A stretch of DNA of 43,512 nucleotides from a virus (lineage: Duplodnaviria; Heunggongvirae; Uroviricota; Caudoviricetes), in IMG/VR virus record IMGVR_UViG_2690315815_000009; one strand, written 5' to 3'. The position numbers and the translations under genes are program-made. The stretch's first letter is position 1, and every line of letters starts with the position of its first letter. The notes under the pieces are model-generated. The model saw only the letters and a list, made by a program, of their open reading frames with translations. It was not told the DNA's origin and did no database searches. Below are positions 4,433 through 43,512 of the stretch, piece by piece.

Positions 4433-5935
4433 TTAGACTGTTTCTTTAAAAAGAGAGGCCAGAGCTTCAACTGTGTAATCATTATTAATGCGGTACATTA
4501 ACGTAATTGTTTGTGCCGGGGATTTCGGTCCAAAGTCAACATTAATATAAAGATTACCAGCGGCCAGACTTTCTTTTGTATTTAACTCTTCATCTAACCA
4601 CGCCCGTCCTCCGTTAATCGCGCCCTGCTCCTCTAATTTATGCAGATACGCGTTTATCGACTCTACAACGTCTGTTCCGAGGTGCAGGTCTATCGGGCGA
4701 TCAATAAAATCGGTCATCATTGCCCGGGCTATTGAATCCTCAATTACGTCAGCTGTCCGACGAACGCATTCAAAGGACCATTGGGGACTGAGGCTACACA
4801 GATAGTTACCCCAGTGTCTGAATCCATCATAGCGAATAATTGTGCTGACCTGGCTGGCGTTCAGCAGATTTGCTGTGCAGTTCGTTTCACCGATTATAAA
4901 ATCATCGACTTGTTCGAGTCCTGTAATTCCGTAGATATTTTGATTCGATTTGCTCCACCAAAACCCTTTTTCGTTATCAATTCTGGCTCGTAAACCAGCA
5001 GCGATAGCTGAATACGGACGAGATAAACCACTAACATCACTCGTAGAATAAACACGAGGGCGCAGAATTTCCATTCTGCCGCCGTACCTCTGACGACGAT
5101 TTACAACGTCAGCAGGCGTAGCGCCTCGCGGTGAATCGATATATCCAACGCCTCGTAATTTATTTGTCACCACTTCAAGTTGTTCTGCAATATAATCGTT
5201 AGCACTATAATCTGGAGCGATTAAAATTCTCGGCGTTACTTGATTTATTTGCGCAGACGTCAACAATGCGTTAATCCCGTTAACGACGTTCTGCCGCATT
5301 TTTGTTTCGTCGCTGTCCTCTTCGACGCGGACAACAACAATAATGGCATCCTCCTGATTTAGTATTTCAGATACAGCGGGAGGAAGGGTTCCAGACCCAC
5401 CGAGCAATCCAGCTTTTTTTTGACTGCCTGCAATTAACGTCGGAACATTATATTTGAACGATTCGTCTTTACCACCGGATAAATTTGTTGGGGGGAGCGC
5501 GAATACAGTCCCCGTTCCTGCGTGATCACCACCGAATGTGACGTTAATATATTCTCCAATCTGGAGTCCTTCTTTATACTGCTGGTTCTGATCGTACATT
5601 TTTGACGGGGTCATGGCACCGTCCGTGATCATTGTTAATTTTCTCGAACCGTCGGGCAGTGTGCTGTATCCTGGAGTTGCTACATTCCCGTTAATTCCCA
5701 AATCAACAATTTCAACAATCCAGTTGTTTCCGTCGGCCCCTGGCATGACAGTCGAAAACTCAACAAGATTGTCTGCGAGCTCTGATCCCCATAATAGTGA
5801 TGCACAAGTTGGGTAGCTGGAATCGGGAGCAGTACCAACAATCCCAATCACGGAAATATCTACTGTGTTGATCTCTTTTGTGCCGTCGTCGTATTCGAGC
5901 GTGCGAATACCGTGTAAAAAATTAGTTACGCTCAT
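4433..5935 (-). CDS. Contractile tail sheath protein (P2 FI / Mu L-like)
   Basis: 500-aa ORF followed by tube, chaperone and tape measure genes; canonical myovirus tail order. Confidence 0.8.
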   Translation of the reverse strand: MSVTNFLHGIRTLEYDDGTKEINTVDISVIGIVGTAPDSSYPTCASLLWGSELADNLVEFSTVMPGADGNNWIVEIVDLGINGNVATPGYSTLPDGSRKLTMITDGAMTPSKMYDQNQQYKEGLQIGEYINVTFGGDHAGTGTVFALPPTNLSGGKDESFKYNVPTLIAGSQKKAGLLGGSGTLPPAVSEILNQEDAIIVVVRVEEDSDETKMRQNVVNGINALLTSAQINQVTPRILIAPDYSANDYIAEQLEVVTNKLRGVGYIDSPRGATPADVVNRRQRYGGRMEILRPRVYSTSDVSGLSRPYSAIAAGLRARIDNEKGFWWSKSNQNIYGITGLEQVDDFIIGETNCTANLLNASQVSTIIRYDGFRHWGNYLCSLSPQWSFECVRRTADVIEDSIARAMMTDFIDRPIDLHLGTDVVESINAYLHKLEEQGAINGGRAWLDEELNTKESLAAGNLYINVDFGPKSPAQTITLMYRINNDYTVEALASLFKETV

Positions 5936-33580: not shown

Positions 33581-33991
33581 TCACGCCCCTTTCTTTGCTA
33601 TCGGAGTGATGGAACTCAGCAGCAGGCGGCAGCGACCAGGCGCGCCAATGCGCTGCCCGGTTATCTTGTCGTAAGTTTCATGCGGTGAGGCACACCAGGT
33701 TGTCGCTGTTTCGTGGAGTTTCACTTGCCGCTCACCATTTCTGCGAATCGCGATCCCGGTGTGCGTTTTGCCCTTACGTTTCACTGCTGGCGCTGCGGCT
33801 ACGGATGCCTGACGGGCAGGCTTAGCAGGGGTTGAAAAATTGCCTGCTTTAGGTCTTGGCACAAAAACCGCGCGAGTGCGCGCACGTGGCCCGACGTTCA
33901 TATTCCACAAAATGACGTCGAGATAGTTTTTACCGTCGTCTATGTGTCCTTTGTCCGACGGGTACTCTAATTTGCCTGGAGTGGTGGTCAT
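33581..33991 (-). CDS. Hypothetical protein
   Basis: 136-aa ORF downstream of the helicase gene; basic, low complexity; uncertain. Confidence 0.3.
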   Translation of the reverse strand: MTTTPGKLEYPSDKGHIDDGKNYLDVILWNMNVGPRARTRAVFVPRPKAGNFSTPAKPARQASVAAAPAVKRKGKTHTGIAIRRNGERQVKLHETATTWCASPHETYDKITGQRIGAPGRCRLLLSSITPIAKKGA

Positions 33992-34029
33992 TGGTCTTTC
34001 CTCGGTTATTTCACGCTGGTCAGGCGTGG

Positions 34030-36190: not shown

Positions 36191-36411
36191 ATGCCCAAAG
36201 CCTCTGAGAGAACGCGACAGCCAGCCTCATAGGCAGCGCCAGAGAGATTTTGCTCACGCAGTTTCGCTTTTTCTTCTTCGTACTTTTCCCATACAGAACG
36301 TGCAGCTGCGACGCGGCCATCGAATATGGGGCGGATCTCTGCAACATGTGCCGGGCGTCCATTCAGGTGCCAGCCGTTACGCCAGGTAATGCGGTCAATA
36401 TGTCTTAACAT
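36187..36411 (-). CDS. Hypothetical small early protein
   Basis: 74-aa ORF between the CII-like gene and the initiator gene, 4-nt overlap with the initiator start. Confidence 0.35.
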   Translation of the reverse strand: MLRHIDRITWRNGWHLNGRPAHVAEIRPIFDGRVAAARSVWEKYEEEKAKLREQNLSGAAYEAGCRVLSEALGI

Positions 36412-36450
36412 CGGTCTTTCCTCGGTATAAGTTAAACGCTGGTCAGGCGC

Positions 36451-37846: not shown

Positions 37847-37876
37847 TTGACCATTACAAATACAAATTGTAAAGTC
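37847..37876 (+). promoter_or_regulatory. Candidate early-left promoter with overlapping operator (pL/oL-like)
   Basis: TTGACC (37847-37852), 17-bp spacer containing the operator TTACAAATACAAATTGTAA, then TAAAGT (37870-37875). Confidence 0.35.
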
Positions 37877-38272
37877 ACTTTCATCAACAACGCTTACCCA
37901 GCGGCAGTTGTTCAGAAACACGTTCTGACAGCCGGAAAGACGGCACCAAATTTTGCGCGTCGGCGCCAACACGGTGACAGAGGGAAAGACTTCACCGGCA
38001 TATGGCACATGTGTCGAAGCGGTCTGGATGGAAGCGGAGCCTTAACGCGTTGTCTCCATAGCAGGTAGCCGGAATGTGCAAGCCACAGCCAGGTATGAGC
38101 GATTGATTCACCATCAAGGCGATACGGTGTGACCACCAGGGAAGAGTCCTGGCTACAACACGAGAGCGCACTTCATCGACTCAACTTTGAGCTTTGTCGT
38201 TAAATTTTGAAATGGCGGAGTGCGCTCCCGGTTGTGGTGAACAGGTGTTTAACGGGAACTCCCTGCCCGTTA

Positions 38273-38298
38273 CCCGGTTCGATTCCGGGCGCCCATCA
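38273..38298 (+). other. tRNA-like 3' fragment (T-arm plus acceptor 3' strand), not a complete tRNA
   Basis: CCCGG-TTCGATT-CCGGG followed by CGCCCATCA; no matching 5' acceptor strand, D-arm or anticodon arm upstream. Confidence 0.3.
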
Positions 38299-38738
38299 TC
38301 AATTTGCTGTGTTTAGTCTTTGCCCAGTCCGCACGATGGGCCATTTTTTCACACAGCCAGGTTTTATCGCTGTGCCTGAGTCCCCAACAGGAGAGGCCAA
38401 ACCCGCAGCGTGACACCAGGGAAAGACCGGAGGAAGTACCACGCCTGACCAGCGTTGACCATGAGCCTGACCAGCTCAAAACAGGAAAGACCAGCCCGGG
38501 CCTGACCAGCCCTGTACGGTCGTAATGGAAACATAACGACGCCGGAAACGTAACCGGCACCCTTTAGATAGCAAAAGACCCGCACAAGGCGGGCCAGTTA
38601 CCCCGAACGGCGACCAAACCATTCGGATTTATCACAAGTGACCAAACTTGTGATGAGGAAAGACCAACGACACTGACGCTATGGAAGCTGATCAATATTC
38701 GCTGATCGGCTCTGAGTATACATTACCAAGGAGTCGCT

Positions 38739-39059: not shown

Positions 39060-39089
39060 AAACCACTGACCTGTAATGAGGAAAGACCA

Positions 39090-41306
39090 ATGACCATTTT
39101 TAACGGCTTGTTAGAAGCGAAAAAAGGCGCGCTCAAAAACGGCGCGATCCCGGCGCTGGCCATCGCCATCGCCGCCCCTAACAAAAAAGTTGCCGAGAAC
39201 ATCATCATCGGCAAATTGTGGGAAGCCTACCCTGACCACGGCGACAACTATTTCAAACCTAAAATCTGGGAAGATGCCCCGGGCCAACCGCGCCCAGGCG
39301 TCGGTGAGTTTGATGAGACGTTTGCCACAGAACACAGTTTTGATGGCGAAAAATGGGTAGTTAACACTCCTGTTGATTCAGATTGCAGTTCAGCAGATAT
39401 CTCACAGGTTAGCGACCTGATGAAACTGCCGGCTCGTGAACGATTCGCCGCCGTTCTGCTGTTCAGCCACGACGCCAACGAAGTCGACAGTGAATTGCTT
39501 GTGCAGACGCGTGAATACCTGGAGATGCTCGATAACAGTGATACTGACAGTGAGGATGAGGTTGACGCGTTTAACCGCATCGTTCTTGATGCCATGGTGG
39601 CGTGTAAGCCCATCGAGTACATGCATATTGCTGGATTGAATAATCTGGTACATGCAATTTTGGCAAGTTGCGATACCCAGGAACAAAACCCGACCAGTTG
39701 GACTATCTCCAAATTTATAAAAAAATGGGTAGAGAATCCCGGTAAACGAGATGAAATGCTGCCGGAGGTAAAACCAGAAACAGCATCCGCACGTCCTTAC
39801 AAACAGACTCACGCCACTCTGGATCGTGAAATTGCCTGCGCCCTGTTACCTGTTGCCCCGGAAAAAATCACCCCCAGCATCCTGAAAGCGGCAGACGAAA
39901 TAATCAGTCAGGACAGGGAAGATTTTAAACGCTGGTCAATGGCCTTGCGCACAACGGATCAGATCCTTGCCTATGACCGCGCATCAGTATTCGGTGTTAT
40001 TCAGAGCGCCCCCGCAAAAGACACGTACCACTTCCCACAATCCCTGCGCAGTCACATCGACAACTGGCTGCAAGCTAACGGGCAGCGTGATGCAAATGCT
40101 GTTGAAGAGAAGCCAAAGGAAGCAGCACCCAAGGATGATGTAAAAGTCACCAACCACGGCGGCGGACGATTCTCAATTGATGGGATGATGTCAGAAACAC
40201 CCTCAAATCAGGGCGAAAAAAGCGAAGCTGCAAATGCTGGAGAACGTAGTTTGCAGCAGTTGCGTGAGCAGTTTGTCACGCCTCGCCATGTGTATGACGT
40301 ACCTGAAAATAACGCCGTATCACAGAGGGAACCTGCAGCTATTACCCTGGCAGAAGAGACTCCTCCACAAGAACAACTTAGCGAGCAGGTAAAGGATCTG
40401 GTGCAGAACGTTGACGCGCTGGTTGAGCGGATCCATGCCGAAGAGCACAAGCGGCAGAATGCAATCTCAGCTATCGAAACGGAGTTAAAGGACTCAGATG
40501 ACACGGATAACCTGGCATTGTGGAAGAACGTATTCAAAACCGATGAGCGCTTCACCAGTGCTTTCTCTCAGAATGGCGGCGGCACATCCATCAACGGCAC
40601 TTATATAGCGATGAAAGCGACTCGCGAATTTGGGCCATTTGGTATTGGCTGGGGGGTAGAGGTGCTGGAGGAGCGCTTTGATAAAGGCGCACCAATAGTT
40701 CGCAAAAAACAGGTTGGTGAAAAAATAGAATGGGATCTGATTCAAGACGGTGTTGGCGGGTACCTATGTGAAATGCACCACACCATGAAAGTGAGAGTCT
40801 GGTACATATTGAATGGGGTACGCGGTGAGTCCGAGGCTTACGGATGCACACCTTATATCTACGACACTAAATACGGACCAACAAGCGACGGCGAAGCACC
40901 GAAGAAATCCTGGACGGATGCTGTTAAGAAAGCGCTATCCCCTCTCGGATTCAGCGCCGATATTTTCATGGGCCTGTACGACAATCCGGAATACCGCCAG
41001 AGGAATAAAGCTGAGTTTGATATCAAGAATGCCAGCGAGAATGCGGAAGATGCTACCCGTCTGCGTAAGGAACTGGATGAGAAGCTTATCAACGTTGCCA
41101 ATACGCTGGCCGCCGCGGTAACCGCCAACGAAGTAAACAAGGTATTTGGCCTCATCGCCCGCGAAGTGGATGTACACAGGAAAGCAGCGGAAACCAAAGG
41201 CGATAAAGAATATTCATCGTATCTGGGATCACGTCTGCGCCGTATCACCGACATTAAAACTGAACGCCTCGCCGCCCTTACCGCTGCACAGGAGCAAACA
41301 GCATGA
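39090..41306 (+). CDS. Large recombination protein with C-terminal Rad52/Erf-like single-strand annealing domain
   Basis: 738 aa; residues about 500-640 carry Rad52/Erf-like motifs (FGPFGIGWG...; ...SWTDAVKKALSPLGFSADIFMGLYD, compare Rad52 TDGLKRALRSFGNALGN); early-left position typical of phage recombination genes. Confidence 0.45.
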   Translation: MTIFNGLLEAKKGALKNGAIPALAIAIAAPNKKVAENIIIGKLWEAYPDHGDNYFKPKIWEDAPGQPRPGVGEFDETFATEHSFDGEKWVVNTPVDSDCSSADISQVSDLMKLPARERFAAVLLFSHDANEVDSELLVQTREYLEMLDNSDTDSEDEVDAFNRIVLDAMVACKPIEYMHIAGLNNLVHAILASCDTQEQNPTSWTISKFIKKWVENPGKRDEMLPEVKPETASARPYKQTHATLDREIACALLPVAPEKITPSILKAADEIISQDREDFKRWSMALRTTDQILAYDRASVFGVIQSAPAKDTYHFPQSLRSHIDNWLQANGQRDANAVEEKPKEAAPKDDVKVTNHGGGRFSIDGMMSETPSNQGEKSEAANAGERSLQQLREQFVTPRHVYDVPENNAVSQREPAAITLAEETPPQEQLSEQVKDLVQNVDALVERIHAEEHKRQNAISAIETELKDSDDTDNLALWKNVFKTDERFTSAFSQNGGGTSINGTYIAMKATREFGPFGIGWGVEVLEERFDKGAPIVRKKQVGEKIEWDLIQDGVGGYLCEMHHTMKVRVWYILNGVRGESEAYGCTPYIYDTKYGPTSDGEAPKKSWTDAVKKALSPLGFSADIFMGLYDNPEYRQRNKAEFDIKNASENAEDATRLRKELDEKLINVANTLAAAVTANEVNKVFGLIAREVDVHRKAAETKGDKEYSSYLGSRLRRITDIKTERLAALTAAQEQTA

Positions 41307-41872
41307 GCACTGCTATCGCTATTGCAAAAGAATATGCCAGTCTGATTGACCTGTTAGAAACCGCCGATGAACTGACGCCAGAGATGATCGCCGACACGCT
41401 TGAAGGCATGGAAGGAGAACTGGGAGACAAACTGGACGCCATGATGGTCATCTGCCGTAATTTACAGGGCAATGCCAATACCTGCGCTGAAGAAATGTCT
41501 CGCCTGGCAACCCGTAAGACGTCCTTTGAAGGCAAGGAAAAAGCAATTCGAAAGCATATGCTCACCTGCCTGCAAGCTGCTGGCCTGGATAAACTGAAAA
41601 CCGCAAAAAACACATTTACTGATGCACAGGGGGCTATCCGGGTAATTATCGATAGCAAAGATAAGATCCCGGATGAGTATGAGGGCGTGTCACTTGTTGA
41701 TGTAGAAACGGTTATTACACCAAACAAGCGAGCCATTAAAGAAGTGATTGAATCTGCGGAGGCGGTTGCCGCCGAAATACTGGCGCGTGGAGAAACACCA
41801 CCAGCCGAGTTATTAAACCCGGTACCAGGCGCACATCTGGAACGCGGCGAACGGTCACTGAGGATACGCTAA
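41303..41872 (+). CDS. Siphovirus Gp157-family protein
   Basis: 189 aa; pattern resembles the Gp157 family (IPDEYEGVSL, KRAIKEVIES, SLRIR); 4-nt overlap with the upstream gene. Confidence 0.55.
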   Translation: MSTAIAIAKEYASLIDLLETADELTPEMIADTLEGMEGELGDKLDAMMVICRNLQGNANTCAEEMSRLATRKTSFEGKEKAIRKHMLTCLQAAGLDKLKTAKNTFTDAQGAIRVIIDSKDKIPDEYEGVSLVDVETVITPNKRAIKEVIESAEAVAAEILARGETPPAELLNPVPGAHLERGERSLRIR

Positions 41873-42054
41873 TGCTTAAACTCACATTAAAGCGTGGTGA
41901 CGCGGTTCACCTGGTACTTGCCGATGGTACCAATGGCATTATTGAAGCACGGAGCCGCTGCGAACTTGGGCTACACCTGCCAGAAAACATTAAGGTCACT
42001 CGGGAGAAATCGGCATTCACCCCACAAGAACTGATTACGCCTAATCAGAAATAA
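41872..42054 (+). CDS. Small protein with CsrA-like sequence pattern (alternatively a Kil-type small early protein)
   Basis: 60 aa; gapless alignment to E. coli CsrA (from memory) preserves ML.LT...G at the N-terminus and LG..LP..[VI].V.RE around the CsrA Arg44 position. Confidence 0.3.
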   Translation: MLKLTLKRGDAVHLVLADGTNGIIEARSRCELGLHLPENIKVTREKSAFTPQELITPNQK

Positions 42055-42103: not shown

Positions 42104-42328
42104 ATGCTGCGATGGCAACCGGGAGCAACTCTGCTCTCCGCATTTGATATCAAAATTGGTCGACTGTCGGCCAGCGTCAGGAAACAGACTTTGACCGAGT
42201 CTGATATTGCCCGTGCCTGCCAGAAGGCAGATGACGCAATAAGCTACATAATGAGGAAAGACCATGAAAAGCGATCACGACATAATCACCAGAGAAGAAA
42301 TGGTCGAGCTGACGGGAAGCCCACTTAA
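42104..42328 (+). CDS. Hypothetical small early protein
   Basis: ORF from ATG 42104 with GGAGGA SD (the track extends upstream to 42074); its 3' end overlaps the excisionase-like gene. Confidence 0.3.
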   Translation: MLRWQPGATLLSAFDIKIGRLSASVRKQTLTESDIARACQKADDAISYIMRKDHEKRSRHNHQRRNGRADGKPT

Positions 42329-42527
42329 ATCAAAGCAATGTGAGGCTCTTCGCCGGGCTGGAATTTTCTTCATGGAAAGGGCTGACGGACACCCAAAAAC
42401 AACCTGGGGCCATTTCATGAACCCAATAAAATTTCGCAATTTACAGGAGGTGACGACGCGAAAAGATGATGAACCTGATTTTGGAGCAATATTTAATGGC
42501 CGGAAAGAGAAAGAACCCAGCAGATAA
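42264..42527 (+). CDS. Excisionase-like protein (DUF4224-type)
   Basis: 87 aa immediately upstream of the integrase; pattern ITREEMVELTG...KQCEALRRAGIFF...DGHPKTTWGH resembles DUF4224 Xis-like proteins. Confidence 0.5.
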   Translation: MKSDHDIITREEMVELTGSPLKSKQCEALRRAGIFFMERADGHPKTTWGHFMNPIKFRNLQEVTTRKDDEPDFGAIFNGRKEKEPSR

Positions 42528-43512
42528 CTGGATGCCGCCTCGTGTTTACCAGGGCAAAGCGGCCTACGAATTCAGGAATAAAGATAACAAAGCGATACGC
42601 CTGTGCGCATTGGATGCACCACGATCAGCCGTATGGCTGGCATATGAAAAAGCGGTCGGTGACGAAAAAGAAAGAAATACTTTTCAGGCGCTCACGGAAC
42701 AATTCATGACCTCCCCTGATTTTATGGATTTGGCAGTCGAAACCCGGAAAGACTACACAAAATATTCCGGAAAAGTTCTGCCTGTCTTCGGGAAGATCGA
42801 CCCGGATAAAATCAAACCTGAACATATTCGGCGCTATATGGATCAACGCGGTTTATCAAGCCGAACTCAGGCAAACAGGGAAAAAAGCTTTATGTCCCGG
42901 GTATTCCGTTGGGGTTATGAACGAGGTTATGTTCAGAGGAATCCTTGTCAGGGAGTTAAACAGTTTAAAGAGAAAGCTCGCGAACGTTATATTACGGATG
43001 AAGAATATCAGGCCGTTTATGAAGTGTCTCCTGATGTTGTTCGCGTAGCAATGGAGATTGCCTACTTATGCGTGGCCAGACAGAGTGATGTACTTTCATT
43101 GCAGAAAGACCAGCTGTTCGATTCCGGGATCTACATTCGTCAGGGAAAAACCGGCGTTAAGCAAATCAAAGCCTGGTCGCCTCGTCTGCAGAAAGCGATA
43201 GCTCTGGCTCGTTCTCTGCCATTAAAAACGGGAATCAGTAGCCTGTTTGTGATTCATCAAACTACCGGTGGCAAGTATACCCGTGATGGTTTTAACTCTC
43301 GTTGGCGTGATGTCAAAGCGGCAGCACAGGAAAAATATCCTCATCTGCAAATAGACTTCACATTTCATGATCTGAAAGCAAAAGGTATCTCTGATCTGGA
43401 AGGCAGCCTGGAAGAGAAGCAAGCAATTTCCGGGCATAAGAACCCGCGACAGACAGCAGCATATGACCGGAAAGTTAAAGTAGTGCCCGTAGTTGGTGGC
43501 CAGAGAAAATGA
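42496..43512 (+). CDS. int: Tyrosine site-specific integrase (lambda Int family)
   Basis: Start taken at ATG 42496 (MAGKRKNPADNWMPPRVY..., arm-binding-like N-terminus as in lambda Int); the ORF track begins at 42466. C-terminal catalytic region with HxLRH-like and terminal Tyr motifs; stop codon at the window edge. Confidence 0.85.
   Translation: MAGKRKNPADNWMPPRVYQGKAAYEFRNKDNKAIRLCALDAPRSAVWLAYEKAVGDEKERNTFQALTEQFMTSPDFMDLAVETRKDYTKYSGKVLPVFGKIDPDKIKPEHIRRYMDQRGLSSRTQANREKSFMSRVFRWGYERGYVQRNPCQGVKQFKEKARERYITDEEYQAVYEVSPDVVRVAMEIAYLCVARQSDVLSLQKDQLFDSGIYIRQGKTGVKQIKAWSPRLQKAIALARSLPLKTGISSLFVIHQTTGGKYTRDGFNSRWRDVKAAAQEKYPHLQIDFTFHDLKAKGISDLEGSLEEKQAISGHKNPRQTAAYDRKVKVVPVVGGQRK

Follow-up and report, generated by a model that had tools for sequence, protein, structure and literature searches.

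A 60-residue early-left protein with a CsrA-like sequence pattern in a ZF40-like Escherichia coli prophage

The early-left operon of the temperate phage analysed here (IMG/VR virus record IMGVR_UViG_2690315815_000009; its whole stretch of 43,512 nucleotides is called the window below) contains a 60-codon open reading frame (ORF), the product of which, MLKLTLKRGDAVHLVLADGTNGIIEARSRCELGLHLPENIKVTREKSAFTPQELITPNQK, is a hypothetical protein in every source (RefSeq entry WP_000916334.1). This product is a genuine small, basic, all-β protein with a conserved C-terminal tail ending ..LI..NQK. Its most likely identity, put forward tentatively, is a diverged CsrA-like RNA-binding protein, an atypical offshoot of the CsrA superfamily. 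Listing it as a member of the CsrA family is not warranted: in the tests its score fell below the profile threshold, and neither a C-terminal helix nor a fold match was found. A preliminary description of this DNA had noticed a CsrA pattern in the ORF and an enrichment of the GGA-containing motif GGAAAGAC in the same operon, and that observation is confirmed. The ORF and its start are:

41872-42054, plus strand: the 60-amino-acid ORF, with an ATG start
41860-41874, plus strand: translation start of the ORF, read from the sequence as GAGGA (41860-41864) and then TAATG

The GAGGA Shine-Dalgarno site lies 7 nucleotides 5' of the ATG, and in TAATG the stop codon of the preceding Gp157 gene overlaps the ATG, an arrangement of translational coupling. 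The ratio of nonsynonymous to synonymous substitution rates (dN/dS) is 0.04–0.15 against homologues that are 75–78% identical, and the ORF is therefore a real coding gene under purifying selection. PHROG 2482 (function unknown) matches the product over its full length (residues 1–60 on profile positions 1–61 of 61; E = 2.3e-36, 124.7 bits), and homologues of conserved length occur in phages of Escherichia, Salmonella, Klebsiella, Citrobacter, Enterobacter, Yokenella and Pectobacterium. The family is carried on 139 viral contigs, by Pectobacterium phage ZF40 (as gp05), which the phage of the window resembles, and by the BUCT708/709 phages. It is nevertheless small: a word-indexed search gave 30 clusters, and an exhaustive hidden Markov model search of 1.84 billion proteins gave 16 cluster representatives, several of which are repeat proteins, and no bridging sequences. 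NCBIfam and PADLOC scans of the product gave no match, and literature searches on ZF40 and on CsrA proteins encoded by phages turned up nothing about it.

The E. coli CsrA sequence to which the product had been aligned in the preliminary description is correct: PDB 1y00 and the CsrA entries of databases are 100% identical to it. The gapless pattern is present, and its first 46 positions contain 10 identities (M1, L2, L4, T5, G9, G33, P37, V42, R44 and E45) and 23 positives. Summed BLOSUM62 scores come to +19 at zero offset, the sole positive diagonal, compared with -5 to -84 on the 16 neighbouring diagonals; the permutation p-value is 3.5e-4 at offset 0 and 1.6e-3 when the best diagonal is taken. 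BLASTP of the product against E. coli CsrA returned no local alignment. Its best Pfam match is CsrA (PF02599, gathering threshold 27 bits), in register (residues 1–45 on model positions 1–45) with E = 0.097 and 13.1 bits. CsrA is also the top Pfam match for 17 of 24 close relatives (E ≤ 10; best E = 9e-4) and for two of nine more distant ones (14–17 bits), the other seven giving nothing.

In hhalign comparisons a CsrA signal appeared only once divergent CsrA proteins were added to the CsrA profile. CsrA genes are common in phages (PMC7366521), as they were in our searches of phage records, and the divergent set was made of the weakest CsrA tblastn matches among those records, chosen without regard to the ORF; all of the sequences used pass the Pfam threshold (32–92 bits). 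A search of a large protein collection with E. coli CsrA yielded near-identical sequences only, and the CsrA chains in the PDB were also too alike for a diverse profile. The ORF family matches five divergent CsrA proteins at 88.5% (P = 2.7e-6), a balanced set of 14 at 81% (P = 1.2e-5), and 33 members of a Lachnospiraceae CsrA clade at 90.8% (P = 1.2e-6, 38% identity over 40 columns); this last, bona fide CsrA clade begins MLKLTLKPGE, compared with MLKLTLKRGD in the ORF product. The alignments span residues 1–48, with residues 1–12 and 31–48 aligned without offset and the middle shifted by compensating 6-residue gaps. None of 250 column-shuffled controls reaches the native score, and when the order of blocks is permuted the native order ranks first of 120 (A5) or joint second (A6). 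By subfamily, the match to CsrA is 81–94% for the window type and 46–82% for an intermediate type found in ZF40 and others.

An AlphaFold model built on a 30-sequence alignment has a predicted local distance difference test score (pLDDT) of 88.3, and above 90 for residues 1–50. It contains five consecutive antiparallel strands (residues 2–6, 11–15, 21–25, 30–34 and 41–45), in the same order as that described for CsrA (PMC7652899). The review in question singles out L4 and R44 as critical, with R44 essential for RNA binding (PMC7652899), and the ORF product has both of these as well as L2. R44 is present in at least 90% of the 30-sequence alignment; position 4 is L, M, I, T, R, W or K across the family.

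A number of results weigh against a CsrA identity. No member of the ORF family reaches the Pfam CsrA threshold (13–19 bits versus 27), searches of PDB sequences with family profiles found no CsrA, and the wider family profile matches a Bap adhesin repeat (PDB 7dm0) at 14.5 bits per domain, a strength on a par with that of the CsrA signal. The first CsrA profile used in hhalign, built from typical sequences (IMG/VR phage CsrA proteins 67–96% identical to E. coli CsrA), gave a probability of 6.6%. Block-permuted controls average 22.5 versus 34.1 for the native order, and much of the CsrA score therefore comes from local strand patterns; an unrelated propeller-like repeat protein (P0040) reaches 75.6% over 23 columns, and although it was picked out of the 1.8 billion proteins of the exhaustive search, this control shows that the GDAVHVV..DG hairpin inflates scores. 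A sister subfamily matches CsrA at only 3–6%, yet matches the window type at 97.6%, and has Ser or Asn in place of R44. Across the wide family the residues that are at least 90% conserved are M1, L2, D18, G19, G22, I24, R29, P37, I55, N58 and Q59, so that what stays most constant in it is a PDG..G.I hairpin together with the LI..NQK tail at the C-terminus, rather than the residues by which CsrA binds RNA. The model has no helix (residues 46–60 are coil, and residues 51–60 have a mean pLDDT of 62), although the divergent phage CsrA proteins of Pondi and Bcep22 likewise lack the EEIY helix motif, and it gave no structural match to solved CsrA, RsmA or RsmE chains. DSSP pairs all five of its strands within the single chain. 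In CsrA, strands β1 and β5 pair with the other subunit, and an isolated protomer would leave both of them partnerless. The strict association of the ORF with the Gp157 gene (72 of 73 loci, see below) is unexpected for a general regulator, and ZF40 is not listed in a published survey that looked for phage CsrA proteins with 10 iterations of PSI-BLAST.

The preliminary description had proposed a CsrA-like translational regulator and suggested a profile search and structure prediction as checks. The proposal is supported in part. In its favour are a marginal but reproducible profile similarity (hhalign 81–91%), the order of the five strands and the presence of R44 in the product; against it, partly by the refuting condition that it had itself set, are the sub-threshold Pfam scores, the missing helix and the lack of a structural match, with CsrA absent from the PDB profile search and no fold match to the model. 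On this evidence the chances that the ORF product is truly a remote homologue of CsrA are about even, CsrA-like RNA binding by it is doubtful, and a resemblance to CsrA in mode of action is possible. The RNA-binding surface of CsrA is formed by β1 and β5. The ORF product keeps a β1 segment (ML.L...G) and a β4/β5 segment (G...P..V.V.R), and a small oligomer of it might bind single-stranded RNA at or near the ribosome-binding sites of phage early or host mRNAs and thereby change their translation. The ORF is translated by coupling from the start of the upstream YdfE-like gene, so repression there would also limit its own synthesis. In this scheme we only infer the fold, oligomerisation, RNA binding and targets of the protein.

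The neighbourhood of the ORF suggests two other kinds of function. The surrounding genes and the promoter of the operon are:

37847-37875, plus strand: pL-like promoter of the early-left operon (TTGACC, 17 nucleotides, TAAAGT)
39090-41306, plus strand: gene for a YdfE-like, exonuclease VIII-like protein of 738 amino acids (phrog_2489; weak exodeoxyribonuclease VIII match), first cistron of the coupled unit
41303-41872, plus strand: Gp157-family gene, 189 amino acids (PF05565, E = 9e-29; PHROG 253), the invariable upstream neighbour of the ORF
42104-42328, plus strand: 74-amino-acid ORF between the 60-amino-acid ORF and xis, with its own GGAGGA site (phrog_27062, E = 2e-32)
42264-42527, plus strand: excisionase gene xis (DUF4224, phrog_1266; profile matches and RefSeq)
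42496-43512, plus strand: tyrosine integrase gene (RefSeq coding sequence mapped to the window, which ends at its stop codon)

In the window, overlapping stop and start codons join the YdfE-like gene to the Gp157 gene (ATGA) and the Gp157 gene to the ORF, the last cistron of the three. From a DicA- or cI-like repressor gene the order is a leader of about 1 kb, a gene of about 105 codons, the YdfE-like gene of about 700 codons, the Gp157 gene, the ORF, an optional small ORF, xis and int. It is kept down to 37% identity of the ORF product, whereas xis and int vary in type (DUF4224, HTH_17, Exc). The operon looks like an intact version of the dicB operon, which in the Qin prophage of E. coli K-12 has a truncated ydfE. 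Homologues of the YdfE-like protein carry the Pfam domains YdfE_N, YdfE_C and Exonuc_VIII, and its weak exonuclease VIII match is to the N-terminal part. By eye its C-terminal third (residues ~470–722) has a Rad52/Sak-like annealing motif (..GIGWG.., ..TDAVKKALSPLGF..), and this "exonuclease" may be a fusion with a single-strand annealing domain. We also note that the 74-amino-acid ORF overlaps the xis start by 65 nucleotides and is unannotated in the RefSeq record examined.

Among the 73 loci with a Gp157 at least 49% identical and with downstream sequence present, the single one in which the ORF does not directly follow the Gp157 gene is L350, where an unrelated Cys-rich 61-amino-acid ORF (5495-5720) occupies the place and a remnant of the tail, KLIFENQN, lies just downstream. 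This is sequence evidence of a gene replacement at the post-Gp157 position, and Gp157 can do without the 60-residue protein, since that slot holds an unrelated ORF.

Such linkage would suit an accessory subunit of a recombination and DNA-end module, functionally unrelated to CsrA, whose β domain with the LI..NQK tail would bind Gp157, the YdfE-like protein or a host protein of DNA metabolism. Its role would then be like that of small accessory genes of other phage recombination modules, for example arf of P22. The near-constant position directly after Gp157, the gene order that persists as xis and int types change, and the chain of stop and start overlaps all favour it, as do the family-wide conservation of the turns and of tail residues I55, N58 and Q59 rather than of CsrA RNA-binding positions, and the self-contained AlphaFold monomer with its low-confidence tail. 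This argument is nonetheless guilt by association: Pfam, PHROG, NCBIfam and PADLOC scans found no similarity to a known recombination accessory protein, the Gp157 of L350 manages without the ORF, and the CsrA-like profile signal is left unexplained. We regard an accessory subunit as rather unlikely and rank it behind the CsrA-like identity.

Third comes a host-directed small effector, such as a Kil-type toxic peptide or an anti-defence protein, that binds a host protein and is encoded in a variable slot before xis. By the gene order of λ and P22 the ORF lies in a non-essential accessory region of lambdoid early-left operons; the slot can hold another small gene, as in L350, with a second small ORF (phrog_27062) adjoining; and the family is narrow, as its 16 representatives among 1.84 billion proteins attest. 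PADLOC, NCBIfam and the function-annotated PHROGs, however, gave no match, the sequence has no visible membrane segment or toxin-like feature, and such tight conservation (dN/dS 0.04–0.15) and nearly universal linkage to Gp157 are unusual for a freely exchanged accessory gene. An effector is the less probable of these two alternatives.

The window is a prophage of E. coli, and its final 2.5 kb are present in 461 of 5426 complete genomes of that species, chromosomal in all of them. In strain SK1144 the prophage adjoins the leuZ-cysT-glyW tRNA genes, and the ORF is annotated there as a hypothetical protein. The prophage site at this tRNA cluster (L001 10644-14187, with the same neighbourhood in L166) lies some 3 kb away from uvrY, which encodes the response regulator behind expression of the CsrA antagonists csrB and csrC; this proximity is probably a coincidence of the attachment site.

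The second part of the preliminary description concerned the motif GGAAAGAC, which was said to occur seven times between 37934 and 42262 and to be a CsrA-type binding determinant. On the plus strand that interval has exactly seven copies. The whole window has 11 copies versus 1.23 expected (none of 100 shuffles reaches 11), all of them on the sense strand of early genes (29.6–42.7 kb) and none in the late region. Across 88 related loci the sense-strand copies number 564 and fall into two main classes. The ribosome-binding-site class has the form GA-GGAAAGACC-(A)ATG, that is GAGGAAAGACC(A)ATG, and in the window includes:

39078-39092, plus strand: ribosome-binding-site-type motif GAGGAAAGACCAATG before the YdfE-like gene
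42253-42266, plus strand: ribosome-binding-site-type motif GAGGAAAGACCATG before xis
36411-36423 and 33991-34003, minus strand: motifs of the same class before two rightward genes

Exact copies of this start element stand before a number of early genes of both operons that are not homologous to one another; L002 is among the related loci that have the element. Related phages with the ORF show GGCAAGACC or GGCAAAACC in its place (in full, GAGGCAAGACC in ZF40, L357 and L361, and GAGGCAAAACC in L352 and L367), and each variant is used at several genes of both operons and, in those lineages, also before the ORF itself. GGA is thus not the conserved part of the element, which argues against a CsrA-type determinant; the motif fails in that role as it had been stated, and GGAAAGAC is probably not a GGA determinant for the ORF product. 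The concerted, lineage-specific change at all sites suggests a lineage-specific reader that acts in trans.

A trivial Shine-Dalgarno sequence was rejected as an explanation of the motif: about one third of the 564 copies are hairpin loops with covarying stems, and the spacer is exactly conserved. Pairing of the motif with an RprA-like or other phage small RNA was also rejected, since the complementarity is 5–6 nucleotides only and is not kept in relatives; "anti-motif" matches are the ribosome-binding sites of genes on the opposite strand. Two further repeats were seen. A short repeat, CTGACCAGC(G), occurs in the leader (38445-38510) and 10–15 nucleotides 5' of the ribosome-binding-site-type motifs at starts 36411 (minus), 33991 (minus) and 39090 (plus), and 8-mer counts show tandem-like arrays, with AATCGGCTCCAGCGGTG-type words 37–39 times in L355 and AACCGGCTGAAC-type words 11–12 times in L350.

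The other main class consists of hairpins, of which the leader of the operon has two, followed by a terminator-like site:

37931-37944, plus strand: hairpin 1, GCC-GGAAAGAC-GGC, with a conserved CGTTCTGACA just before it and a stem that covaries in relatives
37973-37996, plus strand: hairpin 2, GGTGA...GGAAAGAC...TCACC
38327-38349, plus strand: terminator-like hairpin and T-run 3' of hairpins 1 and 2, the only such plus-strand site in the leader

At least three flanking base pairs are present at 80 of the 179 distinct copies outside ribosome-binding sites, with 17 different stems; the pairing fractions are 0.50–0.69 versus 0.17–0.49 when the partner is slid, and the central bases of the motif are unpaired in the predicted ensemble. 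Hairpin 1 is about 60 nucleotides 3' of the pL-like promoter and keeps GGAAAGAC or GGGAAGAC in all lineages examined. By analogy this class looks like nut-type antitermination sites. As at λ-type nut sites (boxA and a boxB hairpin), a conserved sequence, here CGTTCTGACA, precedes a short hairpin with a covarying stem and a purine-rich loop, here GAAAGA, closed by a G-C pair, and a terminator-like site lies downstream; in contrast to them, the loop has six nucleotides instead of five, and no arginine-rich protein of the N type was identified. Rfam gave no match to the leader hairpins. Separately, 38241-38351 (plus strand) is a full-length, sub-threshold Rfam match to the small RNA RprA (37.4 bits versus a gathering score of 70), the 3' half of which (UUGCUGUGUUUAGUCUUUGCCC..GGGCCAUUUUUU) is near the RprA consensus and ends in the terminator-like hairpin. 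Similar elements are found in loci L003, L166 and L359, and by its sequence this may be a prophage-borne RprA-like RNA.

The motif and the ORF could be joined in a phage-private Csr-like circuit, in which a diverged protein of CsrA fold would read the lineage-specific GG(A/C)AA(G/A)ACC, its specificity co-evolving with the element, and would shut down or time the translation of early genes, its own included by way of coupling. A number of early genes of both operons have that element in their ribosome-binding sites, and in the phage of the window it also occurs in the leader hairpins. Lineages with GGA mostly have Arg44, and those with GGC mostly belong to the Arg44-less subfamily; this is a loose trend confounded by shared ancestry, with exceptions both ways and no clean covariation of element and ORF. 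Elements of the GGAAGAC type (in full GGAAAGAC) are found alongside very divergent ORF types, and GGC alongside the R44-bearing type of ZF40. We consider such a circuit quite improbable. Finally, a chance ORF or annotation artefact with no protein product, as might be suspected of a short ORF that overlaps alternative ORFs in other frames, is effectively refuted by the low dN/dS, the length-conserved homologues in several genera, the Shine-Dalgarno site with coupling and the confident AlphaFold model.

About 8% of complete E. coli genomes, ST131 strains among them, have the ORF, and phages of Salmonella, Klebsiella, Enterobacter, Citrobacter and Pectobacterium have relatives of it; it is unannotated all the same. 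If its product were a working CsrA-like RNA binder, it would represent an undetected branch of a major family of post-transcriptional regulators, expressed from a prophage early operon, and could disturb the Csr network of the host or set the timing of phage gene expression. If it is no such binder, it is a clean case of a small β-protein that mimics the CsrA pattern, and a caution for pattern-based annotation. The lineage-variable start element and the nut-like hairpins point, in addition, to unstudied regulation in this prophage group.

Compared with E. coli CsrA (PDB 1y00) and Pseudomonas fluorescens RsmE (2jpp), the ORF product is similarly basic and about 60 residues long, with five strands at nearly the same positions. 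Its N-terminal ML.L(T/S)..(G) and its G...P..V.V.R(E) block align with CsrA/RsmA without offset and include L2, L4 and R44. It differs from CsrA/RsmA in having neither the C-terminal helix nor EEIY, in the reduction of A36-P37-K38 to P37, and in a model that pairs its strands in one chain, whereas the CsrA dimer interleaves the strands of two subunits; in addition R44 is not family-wide, the LI..NQK tail is absent from CsrA, and the gene is fixed beside Gp157. The Bap-type adhesin repeat and the propeller-like repeat of P0040 share with the product a strand, PDG(T) turn and strand hairpin (GDAVHVV.PDGTNG), but the match covers this central hairpin only and leaves out the N- and C-terminal segments, in which the product matches CsrA. 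The nearest likenesses are with divergent CsrA proteins. Although those of Escherichia phage Pondi, Burkholderia phage Bcep22 (gp54) and the Lachnospiraceae clade pass the Pfam threshold and keep (D/S)AP(K/R/S) and Arg44, unlike the ORF family, the proteins of Pondi and Bcep22 are also phage-borne and also lack EEIY, and the Lachnospiraceae clade has an almost identical N-terminal decapeptide; the best profile matches are those to the divergent set (88.5%) and to this clade (90.8%).

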